Shown: positions 16-32,000 of the stretch, piece by piece | Layout: every line of letters begins with the position of its first letter | Numbering within the stretch: position 1 is the stretch's first letter | Origin: Promethearchaeota archaeon | GTDB taxonomy: Archaea; Asgardarchaeota; Lokiarchaeia; Sigyniarchaeales; SOKP01 | Length of the DNA: 32,000 nt | Direction of reading: 5' to 3' | Assembly (NCBI GenBank): GCA_030606485.1 | Contig: JAUWGH010000003.1 | Location: 120,001-152,000 of the forward strand | The notes under the pieces: model-generated | What the model was told of the DNA's origin: nothing | The model's input: only the letters and a program-made list of their open reading frames with translations | Database searches by the model: none | Translations under genes and position numbers: made by a program

Positions 16-3000
16 ATGCAACAAAACCTTTATATAGAAAAAGTTCGCATATTATATACGACAATAATTATTAAATTTTATTTATTTAATTTCTATTTTA
101 AAAAATCAAGGGCGATTATCATAAAAGGAAAAAACATATTTTTTATATTGATCTTATTAAATTTCACAATAGTACCATATTGTTATAATAAAGGGATAAT
201 TCTTAATCCAAAAGAACAACCTATAGAACAATCAATTGGAAGTTTAATAAAATTAACAAAGAAATTACAGGATAATTCTTTAAATGAAACATCAGATTTA
301 ATTGAAAATCTTGAAATTAAAGCAATTAATAATCAAACAACTCAAAAGGACCATAATTCTAGAGATCCTTCAAGTTTAACACCAAAAAATGCTTATGCTA
401 TTGTTGTGGGGATTGCAGATTATCCCGGATCTAGTAGCGACTTATCTTATACTGATAATGATGCAAACGATGTATATTCTTTATTAATTAATGATTATAA
501 TTTTAAGCCTGAAAATGTGATATATCTCCAAGATTCAAGCGCTGGAAAGAGCGAAATTAGCAATGCATTTGATCAAATCGCTTCTCAAATAAGCGAGGAT
601 GATATTTTTTTCTTCTATTATTCAGGGCATGGGGGACTTGATCTTGAAGAAGAGGGACCTTTTTCATGGGATGCAGAAACCCCTCATTCTTATTCAAATA
701 ATTATGATCATACATGGAGTGTCTCACACCCAGGAGCTATATATATGAGAGTTCATTTTTATCGATTTGACTGTGAATACTATTGGGATTATGCTTTATG
801 TGGTGATTCAGATGTGGCTTCAGGATGGTATTATGAAATGTACTCTGGAGATTATGGATATAATTTTTGGTCGGCGTATATTCCTGTAAATGAATATTAT
901 ATAAGATTTAAATCCGATGATTCAATTACTGATTATGGTTTTAAAATTGATTCATATGAAGCTTTACTTCCTAATGGTACTCATTATTTATGCTCATATG
1001 ACTGTATTCCTGATAATCCAGATAATTATTATTTAGATACATTACTTGACTCAAAATTAGATAATTTTAATTGTGCCGAAAAATATATTGTAATGGATTC
1101 ATGCTTTAGTGGGGGGATGATCCCAGAGGTTGAAGATATCGGAAGGTATATAATGTCAGCATGTGATGATAATGAGTCAAGTTTAGAGTCACCATCTTTG
1201 CAACATGGAGTTTTTAGTTATTATTTCCTTAGATCGTTAGATTATGCAAACGATGCAAATGAAGATGGAGTGAAATCGATGGAAGAATGTTTTTCATATA
1301 CTTATTCAAATACAGTTTCATATTCAGGATCTTTAGGTTATACACATCATCCACAGGAATATGATGGAATAACGGGAGAATCTGTTTTATATCCTTCATT
1401 TGGCTCTGTTTCTTATAATTTATCTGGTAATGAGTTATCATATAATTTTACGATGTACGGGACTGGTTTAATAGAAGAATTGAATGTTGGAATATGTTTC
1501 GTTTCTCAAGAGATTAATTTTGAAATAGATGATTTATTGGAAAATCCAGCTTCAGAGACAGGATTTGGGAATTATTCAGGAATAATCCAATTAGAAGATA
1601 GTGATAATATTACAAGTTATGGTATTGTTGCTGAAATTAGGGGGAATAATTTAATTAAATTAAATGATACTTTGTTTAATGATACAGATTCTGACGGTCT
1701 TGATGATATATTTGAAATTATGAATGGATTAAATCCAATATTAATGGATACAGATATCGATGGATTGAGTGATGGAGAAGAATATTATGGAGATTCTGAC
1801 CCTTTACTACCAGACACTGATTATGATGGATTATTAGATGGGTTAGAATTAAATGTTTATAATACAGATTTTTTAAATCCAGATACAGATGGAGACGGGA
1901 TTTATGATGGGTATGAGGTTAACTGTTATCTAAATCCTTTAATTAACGATTCATACCTTGATTCTGATAATGATGGGTTAAGCAATTTATTAGAATTTCA
2001 ACTTGGGTCTAATGCAAATAATACTGATTCAGATGGTGATGGTATAACTGATGGATATGAGGTTTTTAATAGTTTAGATTTGTTAAATGATGATGCAGAT
2101 CTTGATTTTGATAATGATGGGTTAATTAATATTTTAGAATTTCAAATAGGGTCGAGTGCAAACAATACTGATTCAGATTTTGACCAAATGCCAGATTTTT
2201 GGGAATACAATAATGGTTTAAATTTAATTTATAACGACGCACAAGCTGACCTTGATAATGATGGGTTAAATAACTATTTAGAATTTCAAATAGGGTCGAG
2301 TGCAAACAACACTGATTCAGATTTTGACCAAATGCCAGATTATTGGGAATATAATAATAATTTAAATTTAACTTATAATGATACACAGCTTGATCCTGAC
2401 AATGATGGATTAATTAATATTGATGAATATCTTTACCAAACAGATCCTCAAGATTATGATACAGATGGTGATTTATATTCAGATGGAATTGAAGTCTTGT
2501 GGGGTACAGATCCATTAAACCCACTCTACTCGCTAAATTCAATTTTTTTAAATTTGGCTGGAATAACATTAATGTGTGTTTTGGGATATTATACTTTCAA
2601 TACAGTTATTAAGAAGAATTTGAAAATTATTGAGAAAGAAAAATTAAATAGAAAGTTTAAGATAAATCAAAATACAATTAATTATAATTCTCTAAGAGTG
2701 GAAACTAAAGTTAAGCCAATTCCCGTAATAACATATAAACAAAGACCTCCTTATTCTCAATATGCTATTCCAAGTACGACTTCAGCATACACCCCTAGCA
2801 CCCCTTATGAACGGATATCAAGTTATGGAATACCTTCTAATTTAGAGTTAAATAAAATGAGAATTATTGCAAGGGATTTCATCCAGAATAAATTACCTCC
2901 ACCAAAACCAAGTTTTTCATCTGATGGACAACGAGCTATGCAAATAGCAATGGCATCTCTTAAATTACTTGCAGAGGGGAGAATTGATGAAAGCATTAAA

Positions 3001-3207
3001 TCTATGATTTTAGCTTTACAATTAGGAGTCCCAGAACCCATAAATAGCCAAATAAAAAGAACTTTATTAAATTTATTAGATCAAAATATTGATAATTCAA
3101 CTATAACCTCAATGGATAAAGTAGTATCCCATAAAAAATGTATGTGGTGCGGAACTTTGAATAAATCTACTAATAATTTTTGTATAAAATGTGGGAGGTC
3201 GTTTTAA
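16..3207 (+). CDS. Type I membrane caspase-like (peptidase C14) protein: signal/TM, C14 domain with CUB-like insert, Asp-rich DxDxDG Ca-binding repeats, TM helix, cytoplasmic Pro/Ser/Thr/Tyr-rich region and C-terminal Zn ribbon; true start probably near 121
   Basis: AIVVGIADY..L.YTDNDA, FFFYYSGHG (His codon 628-630) and IVMDSCFSGG (Cys codon 1102-1104); ETPHSY.NN...W...RVHF..F.....D...F.SD.S....GF CUB-like pattern; many D.D.DGL.D..E...G.DP repeats; TM ~2539-2600; CMWC..CIKC at the end. Confidence 0.85.
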   Translation: MQQNLYIEKVRILYTTIIIKFYLFNFYFKKSRAIIIKGKNIFFILILLNFTIVPYCYNKGIILNPKEQPIEQSIGSLIKLTKKLQDNSLNETSDLIENLEIKAINNQTTQKDHNSRDPSSLTPKNAYAIVVGIADYPGSSSDLSYTDNDANDVYSLLINDYNFKPENVIYLQDSSAGKSEISNAFDQIASQISEDDIFFFYYSGHGGLDLEEEGPFSWDAETPHSYSNNYDHTWSVSHPGAIYMRVHFYRFDCEYYWDYALCGDSDVASGWYYEMYSGDYGYNFWSAYIPVNEYYIRFKSDDSITDYGFKIDSYEALLPNGTHYLCSYDCIPDNPDNYYLDTLLDSKLDNFNCAEKYIVMDSCFSGGMIPEVEDIGRYIMSACDDNESSLESPSLQHGVFSYYFLRSLDYANDANEDGVKSMEECFSYTYSNTVSYSGSLGYTHHPQEYDGITGESVLYPSFGSVSYNLSGNELSYNFTMYGTGLIEELNVGICFVSQEINFEIDDLLENPASETGFGNYSGIIQLEDSDNITSYGIVAEIRGNNLIKLNDTLFNDTDSDGLDDIFEIMNGLNPILMDTDIDGLSDGEEYYGDSDPLLPDTDYDGLLDGLELNVYNTDFLNPDTDGDGIYDGYEVNCYLNPLINDSYLDSDNDGLSNLLEFQLGSNANNTDSDGDGITDGYEVFNSLDLLNDDADLDFDNDGLINILEFQIGSSANNTDSDFDQMPDFWEYNNGLNLIYNDAQADLDNDGLNNYLEFQIGSSANNTDSDFDQMPDYWEYNNNLNLTYNDTQLDPDNDGLINIDEYLYQTDPQDYDTDGDLYSDGIEVLWGTDPLNPLYSLNSIFLNLAGITLMCVLGYYTFNTVIKKNLKIIEKEKLNRKFKINQNTINYNSLRVETKVKPIPVITYKQRPPYSQYAIPSTTSAYTPSTPYERISSYGIPSNLELNKMRIIARDFIQNKLPPPKPSFSSDGQRAMQIAMASLKLLAEGRIDESIKSMILALQLGVPEPINSQIKRTLLNLLDQNIDNSTITSMDKVVSHKKCMWCGTLNKSTNNFCIKCGRSF
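1966..2540 (+). repeat. Intragenic tandem repeat, 144-bp (48-aa) period, about 4 units; the two central units are nearly identical
   Basis: gataatgatggg recurs at 1966, 2110 and 2254, and gacaatgatgga at 2398; unit DNDGL.N.LEFQIGSSANNTDSDFDQMPD.WEYNN.LNL.YND. Confidence 0.9.
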
Positions 3208-8091: not shown

Positions 8092-8219
8092 AATTATATT
8101 AAGATATAAGAAATTTATTTTTCGGCTTATTGGGTATCATTTTTTGATTTTTTATTGAAAGATTATTTTGAAAAATGAGTAAATTTTTTTATTATAATGA
8201 TTTAATTGAGAGAGAAATT

Positions 8220-9065
8220 ATGTCTATTGAATGGATTGATATTTTAAAAAAGGCAGTAAAATTTGCATATGATAAGGTGCATACTCTTTTAGGAACACTG
8301 GAAGGGGCAGAGATTACTGATGAAAAGGGAGCGGGTGGTGATATTACCACTAAGATAGATTCAATTGCAGAGCAAGCCTTAATAGAGATGATTAAAAAAC
8401 AGAATATAGATTTTCATTTAGTAAGTGAAGAAATTGGTGAAAAATATTATGGAGATAAAAAGAACTATGATAAGTGTAAGGATTATATTATTATGGATCC
8501 TATTGATGGATCTTTAAATGCAAACCGGGGAATCTCATTTTGTTGTATTTCAGTGGCTCATGCGAACGGACCAAACTCTCGAAATATAATAGAAGGAGTA
8601 ATTCTTAATTTATACACTGAAGCCATCTACTGGGCGATTAAAGGAAAAGGAGCTTATCTCAATAATAAACAAATCTCTGTTTCTAAACTCGATGATATAG
8701 ATAGAGCTGTGGCTGGAGTAGCATTAAATTCTTCCGAGCCATTTTCAAGGGCTGTACAGAGGTATAAACCCATTATCGACGAAGTGTATAAAGTTCGTAC
8801 GATGGGATCTGTCGCCTTAGAATTATGCCAAGTTGCAGAGGGGGCACTTGATTTGTTTTTAGATGTAAGAGGAACTCTAAGAATATTAGATTGTGCTGCA
8901 GGTATTTTAATTGTTCAAGAAGCAGGGGGAACAATTCTCTCAAATGAGGGATTACTCCTGGAATTACCTCTTAAAATTGAATCGAAATGCTCGATTATTG
9001 CATCTAACCAAAATTTGGCAAAATACATTAAAAAAAATTTGTCTAAATTAAATAAATTATTGTAG
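8220..9065 (+). CDS. suhB: Inositol monophosphatase / FBPase-family phosphatase (likely ATG at 8220; ORF track start 8175)
   Basis: GDITTKID, SEE, DPIDGS, R..GS.ALELC.VAEG, D.AAG motifs. Confidence 0.9.
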   Translation: MSIEWIDILKKAVKFAYDKVHTLLGTLEGAEITDEKGAGGDITTKIDSIAEQALIEMIKKQNIDFHLVSEEIGEKYYGDKKNYDKCKDYIIMDPIDGSLNANRGISFCCISVAHANGPNSRNIIEGVILNLYTEAIYWAIKGKGAYLNNKQISVSKLDDIDRAVAGVALNSSEPFSRAVQRYKPIIDEVYKVRTMGSVALELCQVAEGALDLFLDVRGTLRILDCAAGILIVQEAGGTILSNEGLLLELPLKIESKCSIIASNQNLAKYIKKNLSKLNKLL

Positions 9066-12690: not shown

Positions 12691-14652
12691 ATGGGAAACG
12701 GATTTTTTGGTAAGATTTTATGGATAGACTTTTCTGATGAGACATTTAAGGAAGAAAACTTATCTGAAAGTATTTATCGGCAATATCTTGGCGGTTATGG
12801 ATTGGGTTGTAAATTAATTTATGAGAATACTCCAATAAAATATGATCCTTTAGGTCCAGATTCAATATTCGGTTTTTTTCCAGGTTTATTAACTGGATCT
12901 ACAGCTCCTTGTTCTGGTCGATATATGGTTGCCGGGAAGTCTCCTCTAACGGGAACATGGGGAGATGCCAATTCGGGAGGCACTTTTGGTCCAGAGATTA
13001 AAAAATGTGGGTATGATGCAATTTTGTTTAAAGGAATTGCTGAAAGTCCAAAATATGTAACAATTATTGAAGATGAAAAGAGTATTCATGATGCCAATGA
13101 TATTTGGGGTCTTGATGTCATCAAAGCAGAGGAAAAATTAAAGAAAAAGCATGGTAAATTTGTTAAAACGGCGGGTATAGGCAAAGCAGGAGAAAATATT
13201 TCCTTAATTTCAGGAATTGTGAATGATAGAGGTCGAATCGCAGCAAGATCTGGAATAGGAGCAATAATGGGTTCAAAAAAGGTTAAGATGTTAGTTCTTA
13301 AAGGAAATAAACAAATGTCTTTAGCAAATAAAAGAGATTTATTAAAATATACCAAATCATATAATAGTGAAAAAAACCCATCACCAGGAAAATTTAGAAA
13401 ATCTTTAATAAAGAAGATCCCTGGGATCCCTAAGTTATTAAGAAGGTTACATATTCCATTTAAAGGTCCTGGCAAAATATTAACTCAAATTTATCAAGTT
13501 TTTGGGACATCTATAGGAAATACATTATTAGCTGAAATTGGAGATTCTCCAGTTAAAAATTGGGGTGGTATTGGACAATTTGATTTTCCACCAAACAGAT
13601 CTACAGAAATATCCACAGTAAGAATAAACAACTATAAACAAAGGGATTATGGATGTCTTACTTGCCCAATTCAGTGTGGAGCAATTTTAAAAGTTCCAGA
13701 ACTTGGATTAGAAGAAACGTATCTCCCAGAATATGAAACTTGTTGTGCTTTTGGGACACTTTTACTTAATAATGATCTTTTATCAATAATCACACTTAAC
13801 GATTTATGCAATCGTGCGAGTATAGATACGATATCTACTGGTGTAACTGTAGCTTTTGCAATTGAATGTTTTGAGAATGGAATTATTACAATAGATGATA
13901 CAAATGGACTTGAATTAGGGTGGGGGAAGTCAGATTCTATTGTAGAACTAGTTAAACTGATGATAAATCGGGAAGGTATTGGAGATATTTTAGCTGATGG
14001 TGTAAAAAAGGCATCAGAAAAAATTGGTAGAGGGAGTGAGAAGTTTGCCATGCATTCATTCGGACAAGAAATTGCAATGCATGATCCGAAATTTATCGAA
14101 TCTCTTGGTTGTACTTATGCATTTGACCCAACCCCCGGAAGACATACAGCGGCAAGTATAGATTTCATGAATCTTGGACCTATCAATAAATACATGAAAG
14201 GGTTTTCTTTACCAAAAAAATGGAAAAAGAATAAGGAAGCAAAATATAAAGGACAAATGCTTGTCAGTGGTTTACAGCAAGTTATAAATTGCCTAGGTTT
14301 ATGCACATTTACTACATTGTTTGGCTCGTATCCCTCAAAAGAGATAATAGAATCAATTACTGGTTGGGATATCTCTACTGATGAGCTAATTAAAACGGGT
14401 TTAAGAATTCAAACATTAAGACAATCCTTTACAATTCGAGAGGGGGTTAAGATTGCTGAAAATTATTTACCATCAAGGGTAATTGGAGAGCCACCTTTTG
14501 AGAAAGGGCCTACTAAAGGAATAACTGTAGATTATCGAGAATTTTATGAAGGTGTTTGCAAAGAAATGGGTTGGAATCCACAAAATGGATATCCTTTAAA
14601 AGAAACTCTCGTTGATTTAAATTTGGATTTTGTTATAAAGGATCTTTATTAA
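12691..14652 (+). CDS. aor: Aldehyde:ferredoxin oxidoreductase family (W-pterin, 4Fe-4S)
   Basis: KSPLTG.WGDANSGG, GR.A.RSGIGAIMGSK..K, CLTCPIQC, PEYET, DTISTG, GLCTF motifs. Confidence 0.95.
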   Translation: MGNGFFGKILWIDFSDETFKEENLSESIYRQYLGGYGLGCKLIYENTPIKYDPLGPDSIFGFFPGLLTGSTAPCSGRYMVAGKSPLTGTWGDANSGGTFGPEIKKCGYDAILFKGIAESPKYVTIIEDEKSIHDANDIWGLDVIKAEEKLKKKHGKFVKTAGIGKAGENISLISGIVNDRGRIAARSGIGAIMGSKKVKMLVLKGNKQMSLANKRDLLKYTKSYNSEKNPSPGKFRKSLIKKIPGIPKLLRRLHIPFKGPGKILTQIYQVFGTSIGNTLLAEIGDSPVKNWGGIGQFDFPPNRSTEISTVRINNYKQRDYGCLTCPIQCGAILKVPELGLEETYLPEYETCCAFGTLLLNNDLLSIITLNDLCNRASIDTISTGVTVAFAIECFENGIITIDDTNGLELGWGKSDSIVELVKLMINREGIGDILADGVKKASEKIGRGSEKFAMHSFGQEIAMHDPKFIESLGCTYAFDPTPGRHTAASIDFMNLGPINKYMKGFSLPKKWKKNKEAKYKGQMLVSGLQQVINCLGLCTFTTLFGSYPSKEIIESITGWDISTDELIKTGLRIQTLRQSFTIREGVKIAENYLPSRVIGEPPFEKGPTKGITVDYREFYEGVCKEMGWNPQNGYPLKETLVDLNLDFVIKDLY

Positions 14653-18719: not shown

Positions 18720-19760
18720 ATGATAAGAAAGATTCCCGTATCTATTGTTGGCGTAGGAAATTTATGTTCTAGTTTAGTTCAAGGCATATATAGCGAAGGG
18801 AAAGGATTACTTCATAAAAATTTAGCTGGATATAAATTCTCAGATATAGAAATAGTATCGGCTATCGACATTGATTCAAGAAAAGTGGGGAAGAATCTTT
18901 CTGAAGCAATTTTTGCTGAGCCCAATGTTGCCTTAAAATTTAATTTAGAGCTCCCTAAATCGAATGTAGTTGTGAAAATGGGAGATGTTTTAGACGGAAT
19001 CGCAGAAGAAGTAAAGGAAGATATTGAAATATCTGATAAACAACCAGATGATATTGTTGAGGAATTTAAAAAGGGATTAATTGTTTTATGTTTATTGCCA
19101 TCTGGAGCAGATAAAGCTGTAAAATTTTATGCTGATAAAGCCTTAAAAGCAAATTGTGGATTTATAAATGCAACTCCATCAAATTTAGCTAACGACTTAG
19201 AATATAGTAAGAAATTTTCGGAGAAAAAACTACCACTTATTGGAGACGACATTCAAGACCAAATGGGAGCAACAATTTTACATAAATTAATACTTAAATC
19301 AATGAAAGAAAGAGGAGTAATCATTGATGAGTCATATGCGTTGGATGTTGGAGGTGGTTTGGAAAGTAAAAACTCATTATTTAGATCTAGAGAGATAAAA
19401 AGAGAAATAAAATCGAGGTCAGTAACTGAAGCATTGCATATTGATGCACCTATTATAGCAGGAACTTCAGATTATGTTGAACATATGAATAATAGTAGAA
19501 ACACTTTCATATGGATTAAAGGGAAATATTTCAATTCAGCCCCAATCATGATTGATATGAAGATATCAACGGAGGATGGTCCAAATGGAGGGTCAGTTTT
19601 GTTTGATGTAATAAGAGCAACATATGTGGCAATGCTTCAGGGTTCTTCTGGGGCTATCAAACCCATTTGTGCTTTTGGTTTTAAGAATCCTCCAGGTCAA
19701 GTTAAAGACCCAAGTGTAGCGAGTAGAGAACTATCTGAATTCATTTTGGGTGATATTTAA
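18720..19760 (+). CDS. ino1: Myo-inositol-1-phosphate synthase
   Basis: IVGVGN..SSLVQG, FINATP, GDDIQDQMGAT, KSRSV, EDGPNGG..FD..R. Confidence 0.9.
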   Translation: MIRKIPVSIVGVGNLCSSLVQGIYSEGKGLLHKNLAGYKFSDIEIVSAIDIDSRKVGKNLSEAIFAEPNVALKFNLELPKSNVVVKMGDVLDGIAEEVKEDIEISDKQPDDIVEEFKKGLIVLCLLPSGADKAVKFYADKALKANCGFINATPSNLANDLEYSKKFSEKKLPLIGDDIQDQMGATILHKLILKSMKERGVIIDESYALDVGGGLESKNSLFRSREIKREIKSRSVTEALHIDAPIIAGTSDYVEHMNNSRNTFIWIKGKYFNSAPIMIDMKISTEDGPNGGSVLFDVIRATYVAMLQGSSGAIKPICAFGFKNPPGQVKDPSVASRELSEFILGDI

Positions 19761-25282: not shown

Positions 25283-26140
25283 TTAATATTTCCTTGGAAG
25301 TTTCATAATTTCTTTGGCTTCATCCAAATCTGCAATTTCCCGATCCAATTCTTTTGCTAGGCGAACACATTTTTCTACCATTTGCTTATTACTTTCTGCG
25401 AGAACTCCTCTCGAAATATAGATATTGTCTTCGAGACCGCATCTTACATTACCTCCTAAAAGGATAGCTTGAGTAATTAACCGCCATTGATGTCTGCCAA
25501 TCCCAGTGATACACCATGTAGCCCTTGGAATTTTTTCAATAAGATTCTTCATATACATGAGATTTTCCATTGTCGGAGCTGCTCCTCCTAAAACGCCGAG
25601 TACAATATTATAATTTAAAGGATCATGGAAATGTCCTTGTTCTCTTACAAAGAGGATATTATTTATTTGTCCAACATCATATACTTCAAATTCAGGGGCG
25701 GTTCCCGCTTCTTTAAATGTATCTCCAAAATGTCCTAAAGTTTCAAATTTATTTGGAAATATAATTTCCTTTAAAATTGTTGTTCCTCTTGCAAGAGCAA
25801 AATTCATTGATCCAGAATTTAGGGATCCCATCTCAGGTTTGCATATAGGGATATGTCCCAATCTTTGCTCAAGAGTCATGCCAGGAGCCCCCCCAGTAGA
25901 TAAACATAGAAGTAGATCACATTTTTCTTTTACTCTTTTGACAATGTCCTGAAACACTTCAGGAGAAGCAGTTGGTGTACCATCAGGCATTCTAGCATGT
26001 ATATGGACCATTGTCGCCCCTGCTTCATAACAAGCATAAGCGTCATTTGCTAATTCTTCCGGAGTATGTGGAAGCGCAGGATTCTGTGCTCGTGAAGTGA
26101 GTGAACCTGTCAAAGCGCAAGTTATAACTAATTTTTCCAA
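25283..26140 (-). CDS. Beta-keto acid cleavage enzyme (BKACE/DUF849, Kce family); likely TTG start 26140 after GGTGAT (ORF track start 26149)
   Basis: ITCALTG, P.TPEE, HIH, STGG, PEFEVYD, R.GLED. Confidence 0.92.
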   Translation of the reverse strand: MEKLVITCALTGSLTSRAQNPALPHTPEELANDAYACYEAGATMVHIHARMPDGTPTASPEVFQDIVKRVKEKCDLLLCLSTGGAPGMTLEQRLGHIPICKPEMGSLNSGSMNFALARGTTILKEIIFPNKFETLGHFGDTFKEAGTAPEFEVYDVGQINNILFVREQGHFHDPLNYNIVLGVLGGAAPTMENLMYMKNLIEKIPRATWCITGIGRHQWRLITQAILLGGNVRCGLEDNIYISRGVLAESNKQMVEKCVRLAKELDREIADLDEAKEIMKLPRKY

Positions 26141-26351
26141 TATTATCACCTTATGATTTCAAATTTTTGTAGTTAAATTTCGTTATTTAAATTATGATTT
26201 TTTTTTATTAAATTTATTTTTCATTTATTTCATATAAATATTGTCTTGTTTTATCTGGTTAAAATTAAGATTGTTGTGAAATTCTGTTTATTAGATACTC
26301 AACTTTTTACTAGATAACAGAACTAATTAAAAATAAAAAATAAAAAAATAA

Positions 26352-27302
26352 TTATATTGGTCTGAAATATTCAATATCCGTAATTCTCTTTCTTGGTTTA
26401 TCTTTAAAAACAGCTTCAACTCTCATCCCCAGTTTCAACTTTTTTGGATCGCTTTCTTTTATTATATGCACTATTTCCGTGTTAGAACCATCAAGTGTGA
26501 TTAATGCATAAGCAAAGGGCGGTTCTAAAGGCATAACGGGGGTAGAATGCGTTACAACTGTAAAACCCTTAACTGAGCCTTGATTACTAACTTCAACCCA
26601 CTCATCCATTTTTTCAAAGCAATTAAAGCATATCATCTTGGGCGGAACATAAACCTTTCCACACTTTGGGCACTTAACCCCCATGATTTTATTATTTTTT
26701 CCAATTTCAGTTATAAATTTTTCAACATATGCTCCCGCGACATGCTTATAAGGAACCTTTATTCTGCCTCTAAAAACTTTCTCTTCAATATCTTCAACCA
26801 TTTTTTCAACCTTTTTTGGTTTTGGCTCTTCTTTAATTATTTCATAATATAGAATATCTCCTAAATTACCTTCTCTCTCTTCTTTGAAAACTGCTTTAAC
26901 TCGCATCCCAACCCTTAATTTTGTATGATCTACCTCATCAATGAAATGCATGGTATAAGTATCGACACCATCTAATTTAAACAGTCCATATCCGTAAGGA
27001 AAAGGTCTTAATCCACCTGTTTGAGGATCTACAAATGGATAGTTAACCACAGTGAATCCTACAAGAGTCCCAGTGTCATATAATTCGATAAGTCGTGTCA
27101 TTTCCACCATACAATCCGCACAGACTGCTCGAGGCGGGAAATATACTTTCCCACATTTTGGGCATTTACTTCCGTGTAATTTTTTATTCTCCTTTAGTTC
27201 TTTAAAAAATTGTACTGATAATTTCCCCATAGAATATCTGTAAGGAAGGTCTGTTTTCCATTTAATTTGAAATACTTTTTCTTTATCTTTACCTCTACTC
27301 AT
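26352..27302 (-). CDS. Tandem double DUF35 (Zn ribbon + OB fold) acyl-CoA-binding scaffold; likely ATG 27302 (ORF track start 27350)
   Basis: Two units: CPKCGKVYFPPRAVCADC and CPKCGKVYVPPKMICFNC, each followed by G....FTVV...P...LI.LDG..T..H...GMRV.AVF. Confidence 0.92.
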   Translation of the reverse strand: MSRGKDKEKVFQIKWKTDLPYRYSMGKLSVQFFKELKENKKLHGSKCPKCGKVYFPPRAVCADCMVEMTRLIELYDTGTLVGFTVVNYPFVDPQTGGLRPFPYGYGLFKLDGVDTYTMHFIDEVDHTKLRVGMRVKAVFKEEREGNLGDILYYEIIKEEPKPKKVEKMVEDIEEKVFRGRIKVPYKHVAGAYVEKFITEIGKNNKIMGVKCPKCGKVYVPPKMICFNCFEKMDEWVEVSNQGSVKGFTVVTHSTPVMPLEPPFAYALITLDGSNTEIVHIIKESDPKKLKLGMRVEAVFKDKPRKRITDIEYFRPI

Positions 27303-27306
27303 GATA

Positions 27307-27314
27307 ATCACCTC
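27307..27314 (-). promoter_or_regulatory. Shine-Dalgarno-like GAGGTGAT overlapping the upstream stop codon (translational coupling to the DUF35 gene)
   Basis: Minus strand reads TTG AGG TGA TTATC ATG. Confidence 0.7.
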
Positions 27315-28474
27315 AAGGGTTCCTTTCCTAATATTAGAATTTCTGTCCATAGACTGCCACCGAATCCCATAGCTAAGGATTTTTCTACATCAGGAATTTG
27401 TCGTTTATCCCCTCGCCCCATAACTTGGATTGCCGCCTCTGCAACACGAATTAATGCAGTAGCTCCAATGGGATTAGTGCTCAATACACCTCCTGATGGA
27501 TTTACTGGTAATTCGCCACTCATTTGAGTAATACCCTCATCCAGTAATTTTCCACCTTCTCCAAATTTACAAAAACCTAATGCTTCAGTCCAAGCAAGCT
27601 CACTCCAAGAAGTGGGTTCATATATTTCTGCAACATCTAAATCCTTTACCGGATCTGTGATTCCAACCTTCTTATAAGCTTTTTTAGATGCCATTGTCGC
27701 AGTTGGAAGATTATACATTGCATCATCAGTACCAAAAGTATAATAATGGGCAGTTTCTACAGCTTGAATCCATGCTGGATTATCAGTTATATTTTTCGTC
27801 TCTTCTTCATTAGCATAAATAACTGCACATGCACCTTCACTCTGCGGACAACAATCATGAAGCCTTAATGGATGTGAAATAGTTTGGGATTTCATAACAT
27901 CTTCGACTGTTAGATCAGGCATTTTTAAATGAGCAAATGGATTATTCGCAGCATTTCGACGATTTTTTACGGTAACCCTTGCAGCTTGTTCAGCAGTTAT
28001 ACCATATTTATGTTGATACATACTAGCCATAAGAGCGAGTGGTCCTAAAGCTCCTGCTAAAGAAGGTCTTTCCCATACTGGATCGAAAGCTGTGATAATG
28101 CCAGTTGTGGCGCCACCTTCTTGTAATTTCTCCCAGCCTACGATTAAAATTTTATTATATATTCCTGACGCCACATTATGATATCCACATATCGCTAATG
28201 ATGATCCTGTAGTTCCTCCTGTTGCAACCTTAACAACTGGTTTTAAATAGCCTGGTGCCGCTTCTATTCCGCACCACATCTCCGAGAAGTTGATTCCTTC
28301 AAAATGATCCATATTTCCGATTATTACGGCATCTATATCAGCGGGTGCAAGTTGAGCATCATCAAGAGCCATTTTTACAGATTCATATATCATTTCTGGG
28401 ATATTAACATCTCTTCTTTTGCTTTTATGCTTTGTTTGACCTATACCTACTATTGCAACATCATGTTTTGTCAT
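27308..28474 (-). CDS. Thiolase-fold protein lacking the catalytic Cys, Ltp3-like
   Basis: VGIGQTK, KVATGGTTG at the usual Cys site, NP.AHL, EIYEP, NPSGGVLSTNPIGA (N in place of GHP His). Confidence 0.85.
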   Translation of the reverse strand: MTKHDVAIVGIGQTKHKSKRRDVNIPEMIYESVKMALDDAQLAPADIDAVIIGNMDHFEGINFSEMWCGIEAAPGYLKPVVKVATGGTTGSSLAICGYHNVASGIYNKILIVGWEKLQEGGATTGIITAFDPVWERPSLAGALGPLALMASMYQHKYGITAEQAARVTVKNRRNAANNPFAHLKMPDLTVEDVMKSQTISHPLRLHDCCPQSEGACAVIYANEEETKNITDNPAWIQAVETAHYYTFGTDDAMYNLPTATMASKKAYKKVGITDPVKDLDVAEIYEPTSWSELAWTEALGFCKFGEGGKLLDEGITQMSGELPVNPSGGVLSTNPIGATALIRVAEAAIQVMGRGDKRQIPDVEKSLAMGFGGSLWTEILILGKEPLR

Positions 28475-28477
28475 ATT

Positions 28478-29629
28478 TTATACACCTCCATCATTTCCAA
28501 ATATAAGTACACAGTTTCCTTGGGAGCATATTCCATTCATTCCATTTGCTAAACCAACTTTAGCGTTGGGGATTTGCCTTTTATCTGCTTTACCCATTAA
28601 TTGTAGAGCAATTTCAGCCACGCGAATTAAACCATTTGCCATGGTTGGATTACTTGATAAAACACCTCCAGAAGGATTAACGGGTATATTTCCGGTCATT
28701 TCAGTTTCACCACTTTCAATAAAGTTTCCACCTTCTCCTTTCCCACAGAATCCCAATGCTTCGTAGCTCATTAATTCATGATATGAAAACAGATCATAAA
28801 CTTCTGCTACATCAATTTCTCTGATTGGATCAATAATTCCAGCCATTTTATAAGCTTCTTTGGCTGCATGTTCTAATCCAATTAAATCCGTCATTGTTCT
28901 ATGCCCTAAATAATAAGCATCAGTGCAACTACCGTATCCCATAAGCCAAACAGGTGAATCTGTGAATTTTTTAGATATATCTTCTTTTGTTAAGAGCATC
29001 GCAACTGCACCATCAGAGAGTGGTGGTAAATCAAGCTCTTTTAAAGGATATGCTATCATTGGAGAGAAAAGGATGTCCTCAATCGCAACTGCTTCTTGTA
29101 AATGTGCATATGGGTTATTGAGTGCATTTTTTCGATTTTTTATAACAACCTTGGCTGCTTGATCCTCGGTAATTCCATACTTATTTGCATACATATTAGC
29201 CATTAAACCTGCAGCGGATATTTGATCTAATCCTAAAGCTCTTTGATAAAATGGATCAAAAATGGAATTATTTATAAGATATTGATCTCCTTCAGAACAT
29301 TTGCAGTGGGATACAACCATTACTGTATCATAATATTCTGACAGAATTCTCATAGCTCCATAAATATATGCAAAAGCTCCGTCTCCCGAAACTCTTGATT
29401 CTGATTTTCCAATAGATCCAACTGCGTCTTGGATTGCCATATCAGCGATCGTCCTTCCATCGTTGAAATCGTTAGAACTTGTTATTACACTTCCAATATC
29501 TTCTTTGGTGATTCCTAGATCATCCATAAGCTTCTTAACAACCTCAAAAACAAGTTCTGAATATGTCTGATCGATTTTATCTGCTTCATACTTTGTTTGG
29601 GCAATTCCTACAATTGCTACTTTATCCAT
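28478..29629 (-). CDS. Thiolase-fold protein lacking the catalytic Cys, Ltp4-like
   Basis: LGITKEDIG..SSNDF..GR, ESRVSGDGAFA at the usual Cys site, DGAVA, EVYDLF, NPSGGVLSSNP. Confidence 0.85.
   Translation of the reverse strand: MDKVAIVGIAQTKYEADKIDQTYSELVFEVVKKLMDDLGITKEDIGSVITSSNDFNDGRTIADMAIQDAVGSIGKSESRVSGDGAFAYIYGAMRILSEYYDTVMVVSHCKCSEGDQYLINNSIFDPFYQRALGLDQISAAGLMANMYANKYGITEDQAAKVVIKNRKNALNNPYAHLQEAVAIEDILFSPMIAYPLKELDLPPLSDGAVAMLLTKEDISKKFTDSPVWLMGYGSCTDAYYLGHRTMTDLIGLEHAAKEAYKMAGIIDPIREIDVAEVYDLFSYHELMSYEALGFCGKGEGGNFIESGETEMTGNIPVNPSGGVLSSNPTMANGLIRVAEIALQLMGKADKRQIPNAKVGLANGMNGICSQGNCVLIFGNDGGV
28483..28489 (-). promoter_or_regulatory. Shine-Dalgarno-like GGAGGTG inside the end of the Ltp4-like gene
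   Basis: GGAGGTG 8 nt before the ATG at 28474. Confidence 0.7.
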
Positions 29630-29965
29630 ATATTATAACCTCTATTTGTATTTGAAATTTAAATTATCAAATCAATGAAACTTCTATTTCTATGAGTTTC
29701 AAATGATTTGTAGTGATTAGAACTTTCATTTATCCAAGTCTAAATTAATTTTAATATATTATTTTAAAATTAAATTAATTAGATAAGAGTTAAAAAATTT
29801 ATAAAGTTTTCAACTTAAGCATAATGACTTTTAGATATTTCTAATATAACAATCTAAATTTACCCATTTATTCTATTATGGATGTTCTTAAAAAAATGAA
29901 AAATATAAGATATGAAATATAAATTAGAAATAAGGAATTATGGATAAAATTTAGGTATATCTAAA

Positions 29966-30787
29966 ATGAGTGAATTTGATTTTCAGGATATCCTTTATGA
30001 GAAGGAAGATAATGGTATTTGCACTATTACATTCAACAGACCTGAAAGAAGAAATGCAGTAACTTACTTAACCTTTTATGAAATTGGGCTGGTTCTAGAA
30101 GATATGGAAAAAGATAAAAATGCTAAAGTTTTAATAATTACTGGAAATCCAGAAGGGAGAGCCTTTTCATCAGGGGGTTATTTCAAACCATCAATATTGA
30201 ATAATATAAGAGATGAAATTAAGCAAGAGATCGATTTAATGGATATCGCTCAAAAAAAAATCTGCATGAAACTATGGAAATTTAATAAGCCGGTTATTGC
30301 AGCAATTAATGGATTAGCTATAGGAGGAGGAATAACTATGCCCTTATCAGGTGCAGATCTAATTTTTATGGCTGAAGATGCTTGGCTAGGATTTTATTTT
30401 GGAAAGAGAGCCATTATACCAGAATTTGGTTCCTCTTTTATTTTGCCATTTTATGTAGGGTTTCAAAAAGCAAAAGAAATAGTATATTTTGGCGAAAAAA
30501 TATATGCTCAAGAAGCTTATGAACTTGGACTTGTAAATAAAGTCTTGCCTAAGGAGGAGCTAATTCCCTACGCTCGAGAGCAAGCTTTACGGCTGATCCC
30601 TCCTAAGGGTCCAAGTTTGTCAATAAAATTAATGAAAAAAACTATGCATGCTTATTTCCTTGAGATCTTAGATAAAACTTTAGATTTGGAAAATAGAGGT
30701 CTTAGAAAAGCTTTTACTTCATATGATTTTAGAGAATCGATGAACGCACTTAAGGAAAAAAGAGACCCAGTATTTAAAGGGAAATAA
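29966..30787 (+). CDS. Crotonase-superfamily enoyl-CoA hydratase/isomerase (ECI2/PaaG-like)
   Basis: ITFNRPERRNA, FSSGG, KPVIAAINGLAIGGG, IIPEFGSS, A.EA.ELGLVNKV. Confidence 0.93.
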   Translation: MSEFDFQDILYEKEDNGICTITFNRPERRNAVTYLTFYEIGLVLEDMEKDKNAKVLIITGNPEGRAFSSGGYFKPSILNNIRDEIKQEIDLMDIAQKKICMKLWKFNKPVIAAINGLAIGGGITMPLSGADLIFMAEDAWLGFYFGKRAIIPEFGSSFILPFYVGFQKAKEIVYFGEKIYAQEAYELGLVNKVLPKEELIPYAREQALRLIPPKGPSLSIKLMKKTMHAYFLEILDKTLDLENRGLRKAFTSYDFRESMNALKEKRDPVFKGK

Positions 30788-30933
30788 ATTAATTGAATTG
30801 AATATTCAATATTTCTATTTCTAATTATCAAAATCATTTAATATAAATGAAATAATACTCTAATTTTAAAAAAAATATTAAAACGAGAATAAATTAATTA
30901 TGACAAAAAATATATTACTGGTAATAAAAAATA

Positions 30934-31344
30934 ATGACAAAGATTAAAATTTTATCGGAAGAATGGGTTGAAGCTTTTGGTAAAGCAATCAATGCGAATC
31001 CAAATTATAAGCCATCAGCGCTTACTTGGGAAGGGGATATGCTTCTCGCAATTGAACCTAGTGGGAAATTAGATCATGAAGTAAGGATCCTTATTGGCCT
31101 TTACCACGGTGAATGTACAGGAACTAGACTATTAAAAGAAGGAGAAGAGGTTGACACTCCATATATTCTATCTGGTCCTTATACTAATTTTGTGAGAGTT
31201 ATGAATAAAGAATTTGACCCGATTCAAGGAGTTATGTCTGGTAAGTTAAAACTAACTGGTGATATGGCAAAATTGATGAGACATGTTCAAGCAGCTAAAG
31301 AAATTGTGAATAGTCTTCTAACGTTCGAAACAGAATTTTTATAA
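30934..31344 (+). CDS. SCP2 sterol/lipid-binding domain protein
   Basis: SEEW...F..AIN.N..Y, G.Y.NF..V.N...DPIQ.VMSGKLKL.GDMAKLMR. Confidence 0.88.
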   Translation: MTKIKILSEEWVEAFGKAINANPNYKPSALTWEGDMLLAIEPSGKLDHEVRILIGLYHGECTGTRLLKEGEEVDTPYILSGPYTNFVRVMNKEFDPIQGVMSGKLKLTGDMAKLMRHVQAAKEIVNSLLTFETEFL

Positions 31345-31415
31345 AAAGTAATAGAATTTTCATTTATTTTTTTTAAAATTTAATAGAACAATAAGAAACA
31401 TTATAGGGAAAAAAG

Positions 31416-32000
31416 ATGTGGTATTTTTATAGTCCTAATATTATATATGGTGAGGATGCACTAAATTTCTTAGAAAATATTCCGGGAGATAAATGTTTTA
31501 TTGTCACTGATAAAGTAATGGAGGAGTTGGATTATTTAAAAATTTTAACAGATAAACTGGAAAAATACGGAAAACAGTATAATGTATATAATGGAGTACT
31601 CCCTGATCCTCGAGAAACTCACGTAGCAGAAGCAAGAGAAATGTGCAATTCTTATACTCCTGATTTAATTCTTGCTTTAGGAGGAGGTTCGGTTATAGAT
31701 GTTGCAAAAATGATTTGGTGTTTCTATGAATTTCCAGAGCTTTCACTCGATGATATCCATCCATTTAGACCCGACCTTCATAATATGGGCAAAAAAGTAA
31801 AATTAATAGCCATACCAACAACTTCAGGAACTGGAGCAGAAACAACATATGCTGCACTTATATCAAAATTTGAAAATGATATCTGGAAAAAGTTTTTATA
31901 TGCTCATAAAGGACTAGTTCCTACCTACGCTATAGTAGATCCAGTTTTTCCCGTAGGAATGCCTTCAAATTTAACTGCTGATACAGGTTTTGATGCATTA
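31416..32000 (+). CDS. Iron-containing alcohol dehydrogenase, truncated by the window end (not in ORF track)
   Basis: Hand translation MWYFYSPNIIYGEDAL..., GGGSVIDVAK, IPTTSGTGAE, AIVDP, ADTGFDAL. Confidence 0.93.
   Translation, partial: MWYFYSPNIIYGEDALNFLENIPGDKCFIVTDKVMEELDYLKILTDKLEKYGKQYNVYNGVLPDPRETHVAEAREMCNSYTPDLILALGGGSVIDVAKMIWCFYEFPELSLDDIHPFRPDLHNMGKKVKLIAIPTTSGTGAETTYAALISKFENDIWKKFLYAHKGLVPTYAIVDPVFPVGMPSNLTADTGFDAL

Follow-up and report, generated by a model that had tools for sequence, protein, structure and literature searches.

A candidate retro-aldol lyase of two Cys-less thiolase folds, linked to a tandem DUF35 protein and a BKACE, in an Asgard archaeon

What reaction could be carried out by two thiolase-fold proteins that lack the residues of a thiolase and are encoded beside a tandem DUF35 protein and a BKACE in an Asgard genome? 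The window, a 32,000-nucleotide stretch of contig JAUWGH010000003.1, contains all seven genes that a first-pass annotation had placed there, as confirmed by open reading frames and Pfam domains. Four of them are on the minus strand: the BKACE (25283-26149, 288 aa; PF05853, E 4e-103, 345 bits), the tandem DUF35 protein (26352-27350), which has two zinc ribbons (C63-C80 and C227-C244) and two OB domains, a B-type (Ltp3-like) thiolase fold, ThlB (27308-28474, 388 aa), and an A-type (Ltp4-like) thiolase fold, ThlA (28478-29629, 383 aa). A divergent spacer of 336 nt separates ThlA from the plus-strand genes, which encode a crotonase-fold protein (29966-30787, 273 aa), a stand-alone SCP2 lipid-binding protein (30934-31344, 136 aa) and an iron-containing alcohol dehydrogenase (Fe-ADH; 31416-32000, truncated at the window end; its counterpart in G001 has 399 aa). 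ThlA and ThlB are 3 nt apart and the gap from DUF35 to BKACE is 202 nt. The ThlB and DUF35 genes overlap by 43 nt, or are separated by 5 nt if the DUF35 protein starts at Met17; its true start may be this Met17, at 27302.

The active-site residues of ThlA and ThlB were read off an alignment to solved thiolases. In ThlB, Gly87 occupies the nucleophile position, Y285-E-P-T replaces the HDCF motif and Asn334 replaces the His of the GHP motif. In ThlA, three residues are deleted at the nucleophile (SGDGAF), the HDCF motif has become Y278-D-L-F, and Asn327 stands where GHP has its His. The earlier description of both folds as Cys-less holds and extends to the His and Cys of HDCF and to the GHP His; judged by these residues, ThlA and ThlB cannot be thiolases. 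Eight of the 12 SCP-x-type thiolase-fold genes in the genome lack the nucleophilic Cys, and Cys-bearing members are found elsewhere (C1, C4 and C6). Many polar residues of both subunits are strictly conserved across phyla, and Gly87, Tyr285, Pro287 and Asn334 of ThlB are each at least 95% conserved among 126 B-type sequences. Tyr285 is at the position of the catalytic base of Ltp2 and Sal, the Tyr that opens their YDHF/YDCY motif (PMC12329534). ThlA has Tyr278 at the same motif position, but 123 A-type sequences show no conservation of this Tyr. At the third motif position, Ltp2 needs its His and Sal its Cys (PMC12329534); ThlB has Pro there and ThlA has Leu. Read from these motifs, ThlB is the probable catalytic subunit of a retro-aldolase and ThlA is probably a non-catalytic or auxiliary partner.

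Phylogenetic analysis grouped ThlA with a Nocardioides PRK07937-family protein in an A clade (98/93) and ThlB with a PRK08313-family protein in a B clade (100/99). An Ltp2-type protein and the Cys-bearing thiolases fell outside the A/B clade; neither ThlA nor ThlB clusters with Cys-dependent thiolases. The Nocardioides proteins pass the PRK07937 and PRK08313 models and adjoin a tandem DUF35 gene and an EchA19 equivalog. The best NCBIfam model for ThlB is PRK08313 (376 bits versus a cut-off of 514), and both archaeal proteins score under the curated cut-offs of the Ltp4/Ltp3 models. The proposed ltp4-like and ltp3-like assignment is nonetheless borne out, as the A and B clades hold the actinobacterial proteins and these share their active-site motifs with the archaeal ones. 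The Nocardioides locus (L009) likewise encodes two adjacent paralogous Cys-less thiolase folds and a tandem DUF35 protein; its A type shares the deletion with D-G/A, its B type shares Y-x-P-x-S-W and S/T-N-P-I-G-A, and Ltp3/Ltp4 and ThlB/ThlA are ~30% identical. The settings differ: the actinobacterial locus is linked to a P450, a FadA5-type thiolase and other steroid genes and contains no BKACE, whereas the archaeal set belongs to an anaerobic host and is linked to a BKACE, SCP2, a CrtI-family protein and an Fe-ADH. We take Rv3523, Rv3522 and Rv3521 to be the Ltp3, Ltp4 and tandem-DUF35 proteins of actinobacterial sterol catabolism. To our knowledge, Ltp3 and Ltp4 are known from genetics only and no A/B-type enzyme has been assayed. 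The aldol-lyase genes ltp3 and ltp4 are reportedly needed for sterol side chains with a C24 branch (Wilbrink 2012, as cited in PMC6593523).

The steroid and bile-acid side-chain retro-aldolases Ltp2-ChsH2(DUF35) (PDB 6ok1) and Sal-Shy(DUF35) (PDB 9myr), which are among the PDB matches, have in common with the archaeal set a Cys-less thiolase fold, the first-motif Tyr and DUF35 docking (PMC12329534), the last of which is expected for the tandem DUF35 protein on the ThlA/ThlB pair. They differ from it in being homodimers instead of an A/B pair, in having a second catalytic residue (Tyr344 and the motif His in Ltp2, Cys304 in Sal) that is absent from ThlA and ThlB, and in a DUF35 that is fused to a MaoC hydratase and not to a BKACE. 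The SCP-x-type fold is also found in thiolase/DUF35 systems in which DUF35 recruits a second enzyme; their Cys-bearing thiolases keep the Cys, HDCF/HDAF and GHP and perform Claisen chemistry, unlike ThlA and ThlB. The A and B genes always form an adjacent pair accompanied by two DUF35 modules, both in the three sets of this genome and in 49 of 49 long bacterial loci, and two to three distinct A/B sets are kept per genome. The tandem-DUF35 gene called by the first-pass annotation is present in the window, but the fusion is limited to genus g1; in other genera each DUF35 has a gene of its own.

A related gene set occurs in Spirochaetota, Smithella and Syntrophaceae as a strictly conserved operon, ThlA-ThlB-[SCP2-DUF35]-[DUF35-BKACE]-ECH-ligase-CoA-transferase-DUF35-ThlA-ThlB-DUF35, in which SCP2-DUF35 and DUF35-BKACE are fusion proteins. 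Its acyl-CoA dehydrogenases, ligases, CoA-transferases and YsiA-like TetR regulator give it a catabolic make-up. The archaeon and the operon have in common the A/B families, DUF35, a BKACE lineage (that of set 3), SCP2 and crotonase, and the DUF35 part of the DUF35-BKACE fusion in bacteria shares 48% identity with the C-terminal half of the tandem DUF35 protein. In the archaeon the parts are encoded by separate genes at three loci of one contig, except that the two DUF35 are fused to each other, unlike in the operon. Homologs of the operon's PHP protein, TetR regulator and 296-aa protein were not found in the archaeal genome. The combination, flagged earlier as undescribed in archaea, is new in the searchable literature, yet it corresponds to a widespread operon of bacteria in split form, and no paper on that operon was found in the literature searched. 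This uncharacterised gene set, which many anaerobic bacteria conserve, probably cuts carbon chains beyond the reach of ordinary beta-oxidation.

The window BKACE keeps the metal motifs H49-x-H51 and E240 and is one of five BKACE paralogs in the genome. It was rejected as the Kce of lysine fermentation (302 versus an equivalog cut-off of 382); a paralog on contig C10 passes that cut-off and lies inside a lysine-fermentation cluster. By its place in the tree and these scores, we class the window protein as a genus-level paralog and not Kce. The characterised BKACEs, which comprise Kce and the triacetate (3,5-dioxohexanoate) and 3-oxoadipate acetyl-CoA transferases, share with it the full-length domain and metal motifs and are its best NCBIfam matches, but it falls under every equivalog cut-off of these families; no report of a characterised BKACE with a DUF35 or thiolase-like partner was found in the literature searched. 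The proposed linkage of BKACE to the set stands in broad terms: at least 11 genomes from at least nine Asgard genera have a BKACE within ~6 kb of DUF35 genes of this kind, a lineage other than the window's adjoins such sets in at least nine Asgard genera, and this set-linked clade is sister to the bacterial DUF35-fused BKACE (99/99). It does not stand for the window paralog, whose orthologs adjoin the DUF35 gene in G000 and G001 only, two genomes of the genus; G002 has a near-identical BKACE on another contig, and G024 and G005 have a canonical enoyl-CoA hydratase at the same position. The set-3 BKACE of the genome has a divergent acetoacetate-CoA ligase gene (735 bits versus a cut-off of 521), such ligases occur near BKACE in G001, G002 and G008, and 43 of 49 bacterial operons contain CoA_trans genes. 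These neighbours, a ligase in archaea and a CoA-transferase in bacteria, point to acetoacetate as a product.

The reading that we favour, with moderate confidence, is that ThlA and ThlB assemble into a heteromer that breaks carbon-carbon bonds without thiolysis, a lyase of the Ltp4/Ltp3 retro-aldol type, onto which the tandem DUF35 protein docks and with which the BKACE cooperates. Tyr285 of ThlB would deprotonate the 3-hydroxyl of a 3-hydroxyacyl-CoA and the C2-C3 bond would break, releasing a ketone or aldehyde together with acetyl-CoA (or propionyl-CoA). Most likely, the substrate would be a lipophilic acyl-CoA that does not permit oxidation and thiolysis at its beta-carbon, such as a beta-branched isoprenoid-like chain. 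From acetyl-CoA and a free beta-keto acid, the BKACE would form a shortened acyl-CoA and acetoacetate, which would be re-activated by the acetoacetate-CoA ligase in archaea and by the CoA-transferase in bacteria. Two points count against this reading as the origin of the beta-keto acid: a plain retro-aldol step produces a ketone or aldehyde instead, and the genome, whose marker-based completeness is 100%, has no Carboxyl_trans domain with which a carboxylated branch could be made, whereas matches occur in 12 of 14 control genomes.

A source of this acid would be at hand if the lyase cleaved a carboxylated branch of the 3-hydroxy-3-alkylglutaryl-CoA type, as proposed for C24-branched sterols: cleavage would supply the BKACE with its two substrates, a free beta-keto acid and acetyl-CoA, and the net result would be a shorter acyl-CoA and acetoacetate. 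Such chemistry follows the established reactions of HMG-CoA lyase and BKACE, agrees with the Ltp3/Ltp4 homology and the acetoacetate-activating enzymes, and would readily explain why a BKACE is tethered to the lyase. We nevertheless consider it rather unlikely. Without an acyl-CoA carboxyltransferase in the genome the sterol-type route is unsupported, the conserved bacterial operon has no carboxylase gene either, and the actinobacterial locus does without a BKACE. The first-pass proposals of a free 3-oxo acid from a sterol-type retro-aldol step, which needs the carboxylated branch, and of a sterol or hopanoid substrate, to which nothing points and for which no genes lie nearby, are not sustained. 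Should the window BKACE instead be a chance neighbour serving a separate keto-acid pathway, for example in amino-acid or ketone-body metabolism, the unit would be ThlA-ThlB-DUF35 only. The 202-nt gap, the number of paralogs and the patchy adjacency described above, with a hydratase in its place in two genomes, fit this; we judge it unlikely, given that many genera have such sets linked to a BKACE of a different lineage, which in bacteria is fused to DUF35, and that set 1 of the genus, 60 kb from the set-linked BKACE lineage, again has an adjoining BKACE.

ThlA and ThlB themselves could be read in two other ways. A preprint takes the 'ketothiolase/DUF35' pairs of Asgard genomes, of which it counts a mean of 3.8 per genome, as a sign of fatty-acid synthesis capacity (10.1101/2024.07.05.601840); ThlA/ThlB might be such a pair, condensing acyl units for fatty-acid or branched-lipid synthesis, and an aldol reaction is reversible in principle. 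That both proteins, like most of the SCP-x-type folds in this genome, lack the Cys and that the bacterial operon is catabolic in content make this highly improbable. Claisen condensation requires a nucleophilic Cys. Reportedly, Saci_1121/1120 of Sulfolobus do condense acyl units for synthesis. The loss of every thiolase catalytic residue, the SCP2 modules attached in bacteria and the known scaffold role of DUF35 (PMC12329534) would also suit dead scaffolds whose only part is to bind CoA esters or lipids and to anchor the BKACE as sole catalyst. We find this very unlikely in view of the strictly conserved polar residues, including the aldolase Tyr in ThlB, the upkeep of several distinct sets per genome and the activity of relatives with the same Tyr as aldolases (PMC12329534).

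Under the favoured lyase reading, the neighbouring genes bear on the substrate. Past the window, the genes that follow Fe-ADH in the plus-strand operon encode a CrtI-family FAD protein, a PaaE-like reductase and a long-chain acyl-CoA ligase. Of 11 relatives, nine keep the first two of these genes close to the ThlA/ThlB core, and SCP2 is near the core in G001, G002, G005, G006 and G016. The conserved CrtI-family protein, SCP2 and the ligase mildly favour an isoprenoid-like lipid; of the substrates suggested earlier, the methyl-branched isoprenoid thereby gains mild support. The crotonase called in the first pass does have the crotonase fold but is not a canonical hydratase: both hydratase glutamates are missing, and Glu153 occupies the single-carboxylate position of PaaG-type isomerases, so that it is possibly an isomerase rather than a hydratase and the cluster has no clear hydration enzyme. 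Its orthologs (69-98% identity) lie near the core in all 10 relatives whose stretch reaches that far; in the eleventh, G020, none was found within the 20 kb fetched. The Asgard origin of the host, an archaeon from cold-seep sediment, is supported by the ESCRT-II and ESCRT-III genes of its genome, which score over the Pfam cut-offs.

The candidate pathway genes in the window fall into two divergent groups. On the minus strand, open reading frame and Pfam analysis identified an A-type, Ltp4-like thiolase-fold gene (ThlA, 28478-29629), a B-type, Ltp3-like thiolase-fold gene (ThlB, 27308-28474), a tandem DUF35 gene (26352-27350), and, after a gap of 202 nt, a gene for a β-keto acid cleavage enzyme (BKACE, 25283-26149). 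Across a 336-nt spacer the plus strand carries a crotonase-fold gene (29966-30787), an SCP2 gene (30934-31344), and an iron alcohol dehydrogenase gene that runs past the window end. The plus-strand operon continues outside the window with genes for an FAD protein of the CrtI family, a PaaE-like FAD/2Fe-2S reductase, and a long-chain acyl-CoA ligase. The window covers positions 120001-152000 of contig C8 in the source genome (G000; 3.75 Mb, 13 contigs). Proteins of this genome pass the Pfam cut-offs for ESCRT-II (EAP30) and ESCRT-III (Snf7), as no control archaeon does, and an archaeal Nre gene lies inside the window; together these support an Asgard origin. Near-identical DNA is present in metagenomes from nine studies of cold-seep, marine-sediment, subsurface, and vent sites. 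Two metatranscriptome runs of the source study yielded no matches, and a third run that might be RNA is probably DNA, so these runs speak neither for nor against expression.

ThlA and ThlB were aligned to solved thiolases (6esq, 7yvy, and 6hsj) and to the Cys-bearing thiolases of the same genome. The alignment places Gly87 of ThlB at the nucleophile position in the N-β3/N-α3 loop and reveals a three-residue deletion at this position in ThlA, bearing out the first-pass annotation of the pair as Cys-less. The HDCF (or HDAF) loop of SCP-x thiolases is replaced by Y285-E-P-T in ThlB and Y278-D-L-F in ThlA, and the histidine of the GHP motif by Asn334 and Asn327, respectively. As the nucleophilic Cys, the HDCF loop, and the GHP histidine are all missing, neither protein belongs with the canonical thiolases, and these catalytic residues rule out a canonical thiolase or mevalonate-pathway role. 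Two more thiolase-fold genes of the genome, G000:C8:196503-198228 (on the contig of the window, C8, and paired with a single DUF35) and G000:C12:6503-7672, also lack the nucleophilic Cys and keep HDAF and the GH(P/A) histidine, a pattern also seen in the best PDB match, 4yzo. Judged by their motifs, these are a third kind of Cys-less thiolase-like protein.

The aldolases Ltp2 and Sal use the Tyr that opens their YDHF or YDCY motif as the base in retro-aldol catalysis, and the second catalytic residue is Tyr344 with the motif His in Ltp2 and the motif Cys304 in Sal (PMC12329534). Tyr285 of ThlB matches the catalytic-base Tyr, and Gly87, Tyr285, Pro287, and Asn334 are each at least 95% conserved in 126 B-type sequences drawn from archaea, bacteria, and one actinobacterium. 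In contrast, the Tyr equivalent to Tyr278 of ThlA is not conserved in 123 A-type sequences, in which other polar residues are. Because the base Tyr is conserved in the B-type and not in the A-type proteins, we infer that ThlB carries the predicted lyase site and that ThlA is its partner. However, the third motif position is Pro in ThlB and Leu in ThlA rather than His or Cys, and neither protein has the GHP-loop Tyr of Ltp2. The second catalytic residue of Ltp2 and Sal therefore has no counterpart here, and their mechanism cannot simply be copied.

The genome contains three ThlA/ThlB-type pairs, all on contig C8 and each with two DUF35 modules. Searching with the tandem DUF35 protein as query returned actinobacterial tandem DUF35 proteins. 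At a Nocardioides locus the tandem DUF35 gene is followed by thiolase-fold genes of 351 and 387 aa, with an EchA19 equivalog, acyl-CoA ligases, a P450, and a FadA5-like thiolase as neighbours. This thiolase-fold pair passes the NCBIfam models PRK07937 and PRK08313, and from gene order and lengths we take it to be the probable counterpart of Rv3522 and Rv3523. The Nocardioides genome also encodes a third protein, which carries the Ltp2 motif YDHF and passes PRK07855. The window and the Nocardioides locus thus have in common a pair of neighbouring, paralogous thiolase-fold genes that lack the Cys, next to two DUF35 modules.

In a maximum-likelihood tree of 30 rows that included one actinobacterial genome only, ThlA and all other A-type proteins grouped with the PRK07937-family protein (support 98/93), and ThlB and the B-type proteins with the PRK08313-family protein (support 100/99). 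Neither clade took in the Ltp2-type protein or the Cys-bearing thiolases. The motif signatures agree with this placement, so the earlier ltp4-like and ltp3-like reading withstands phylogenetic analysis, at an identity to the actinobacterial Ltp3/Ltp4-type proteins of only ~30%. ThlB scores 376 bits on PRK08313 (cut-off 514), and ThlA scores 186 bits on PRK07937 (cut-off 419) and 278 bits on PRK08313 (cut-off 514). As these scores lie under the curated cut-offs, we class ThlA and ThlB as distant relatives of Ltp4 and Ltp3, not as members of those families. The literature searched describes no Ltp3 or Ltp4 structure. Among relatives of the same taxonomic family the ThlA-ThlB-DUF35-DUF35 core is ~80% identical. 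This genus alone has the two DUF35 genes fused; in all other genera of the family they are adjacent, separate genes. The tandem form has been reached by Actinobacteria too.

The BKACE of the window is a full-length PF05853 protein (345 bits, cut-off 24.8) in which H49, H51, and E240 are present; by comparison with Kce, these residues (HxH and the glutamate) are the metal ligands. On the Kce equivalog model it scores 302 bits against a cut-off of 382. A paralog on contig C10 passes this model (441 bits) and is clustered with genes for lysine 2,3- and 5,6-aminomutase (kamA, kamD) and 3,5-diaminohexanoate dehydrogenase (kdd). We rejected the window BKACE as the Kce of lysine fermentation, a role that the C10 paralog fills. 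The C10 locus (L130, G000:C10:619001-629000) itself looks like a full cluster for lysine fermentation in an Asgard archaeon, with lysine 2,3-aminomutase, lysine 5,6-aminomutase alpha, 3,5-diaminohexanoate dehydrogenase, and Kce all above equivalog cut-offs.

Linkage of BKACE to the ltp3/4-DUF35 genes, as expected from the first-pass annotation, holds in relatives for a different BKACE lineage. The ortholog of the window BKACE is adjacent to the core only in the source genome and in G001; G002 has a near-identical BKACE on another contig. A second BKACE lineage lies beside A/B sets in the relatives G005, G008, G009, G011, G013, G015, G018, G020, and G024, and beside the third set of the source genome. 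This lineage is sister to the BKACE that is fused to DUF35 in bacteria (support 99/99). The coupling of BKACE to the predicted Ltp3/Ltp4-type lyase is therefore old and conserved, and the window's own BKACE was recruited recently.

Among species-representative genomes the bacterial DUF35-BKACE fusion has 267 relatives, most of them in Spirochaetota and Smithella/Syntrophaceae, and each of the 49 loci that span 15 kb or more has it within one operon. This operon encodes, in order, ThlA, ThlB, SCP2-DUF35, DUF35-BKACE, in many cases a canonical hydratase, and next a FadD11-like ligase and two CoA-transferase subunits. These are followed by DUF35, ThlA, ThlB, and DUF35, and frequently by acyl-CoA dehydrogenases. 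A small PHP protein is encoded upstream and a YsiA-like TetR regulator downstream; the PHP, TetR, and 296-aa genes of the operon have no homolog in the source genome. The same operon parts occur unfused on a metagenomic contig with a tandem DUF35. In the literature searched, no paper treats BKACE (or DUF849) together with DUF35.

BKACEs convert a free β-keto acid and acetyl-CoA to an acyl-CoA and acetoacetate, as established for Kce and its relatives. An acetoacetate-CoA ligase gene (L013:3043-4863; G000:C8:203543-205363, minus strand; TIGR01217, 735 bits, cut-off 521) is divergent from the set-3 BKACE gene at a distance of 250 bp. The ligase and BKACE genes lie within 2.4 kb of each other in G001 and G002 and are adjacent in G008, and the ligase is present in 12 of the 15 genomes searched in the family versus one of nine in the rest of the order. 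In the bacteria, CoA-transferase genes take the place of the ligase; the only class I CoA-transferase of the source genome is on contig C12, away from the cluster. With one or the other activating enzyme encoded beside BKACE, these data fit acetoacetate as a product that is then re-activated.

The first-pass annotation had proposed a sterol-type route, in which a carboxylated branch undergoes retro-aldol cleavage to a free 3-oxo acid. The kinship of ThlA, ThlB, and the tandem DUF35 to the actinobacterial module speaks for such a route, and the model requires a carboxylated branch because the retro-aldol step must leave a free 3-oxo acid. However, the Carboxyl_trans domain (PF01039) of biotin-dependent acyl-CoA carboxylases, detected in 12 of 14 control genomes, was not found anywhere in the source genome, and no carboxylase was found in the bacterial operon. 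No steroid catabolic genes were found in the cluster neighbourhood. Unlike the actinobacterial module, with its role in C24-branched sterol degradation, the archaeal genes thus have neither the steroid genes nor the carboxylation step, and a sterol or hopanoid substrate was rejected as no gene supporting it was found. A hydantoinase-B-type gene is located far off on contig C10. The crotonase cannot be read as a canonical enoyl-CoA hydratase either, since it lacks both hydratase glutamates (Glu144 and Glu164 in rat enzyme numbering), having Thr124 and a Phe at these positions. Its Glu153 lies at the position of the PaaG-type isomerase carboxylate, and the protein resembles PaaG-type isomerases in these predicted active-site residues. 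In G024 and G005 a canonical hydratase gene follows the DUF35 genes, where the source genome has BKACE.

The gene module is real, conserved, and undescribed, and is best read as a predicted Ltp3/Ltp4-type lyase complex with BKACE, for the anaerobic breakdown of a lipid-like substrate. The SCP2 modules, the long-chain ligases, and the CrtI-family gene and reductase, conserved beside the core in nine of 11 relatives, hint at a long hydrophobic chain that may be isoprenoid. Alcohol dehydrogenase genes are found with sets 1 and 3, and an aldehyde:ferredoxin oxidoreductase (AFOR_N, AFOR_C) is encoded ~11 kb from the cluster (12691-14652, plus strand); by similar hints, these are candidates that could handle a carbonyl product, the oxidoreductase by oxidising an aldehyde. 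A bolder and rather doubtful extension is that Asgard archaea and syntrophic bacteria have a common oxygen- and carboxylase-independent route past the β-branches of isoprenoid-type lipids, for example phytanyl-derived acids. The Ltp3/Ltp4-type lyase complex would cleave the blocked 3-hydroxyacyl-CoA, and a docked BKACE would then remake the thioester on the remaining chain, with the branch carbons leaving as acetoacetate. Were this so, many Asgard 'ketothiolase/DUF35' pairs would be lipid-breakdown lyases and not evidence of fatty-acid synthesis.

To our knowledge, all thiolase-fold aldolases described so far come from aerobic organisms that degrade steroids and bile acids. Proteins of this kind now appear in an Asgard archaeon of cold seeps and marine sediments and, in fused form, in syntrophs of the Smithella type and in uncultured spirochaetes, and the BKACE coupling is present in all of them. 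If the predicted chemistry is correct, it would represent an unstudied, non-thiolytic means of carbon-chain cleavage for degrading lipids or isoprenoids under anoxia. The findings also bear on the debate over Asgard lipid metabolism. One preprint reports that Asgard genomes carry several ketothiolase/DUF35 pairs each and interprets these as fatty-acid synthesis capacity (10.1101/2024.07.05.601840). Such counts overstate condensation capacity, since eight of the 12 SCP-x-type thiolase-fold genes in the genome studied here lack the catalytic Cys.

Several other genes were observed on contig C8. A gene directly downstream of the second ThlA/ThlB/DUF35/DUF35 set, with an acyl-CoA dehydrogenase gene on the other side, encodes a glycyl radical enzyme of 798 aa that belongs to the PFL2/glycerol-dehydratase family (L012:1278-3674; G000:C8:187278-189674, minus strand). 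It scores 752 bits on TIGR01774 (cut-off 678) and reaches none of the specific equivalog models. Between the lipid-type gene sets lie a nucleotidyltransferase/HEPN pair and two PIN-domain genes (L011:5478-6234; L012:13000-13407; L013:2512-3012). Within the window, a plus-strand gene at 16-3207 encodes a protein of 1063 aa that combines a caspase (Peptidase_C14) domain with bacterial TSP3 repeats, and the same strand carries an inositol monophosphatase-family gene (8175-9065) and a myo-inositol-1-phosphate synthase-like gene (18720-19760).
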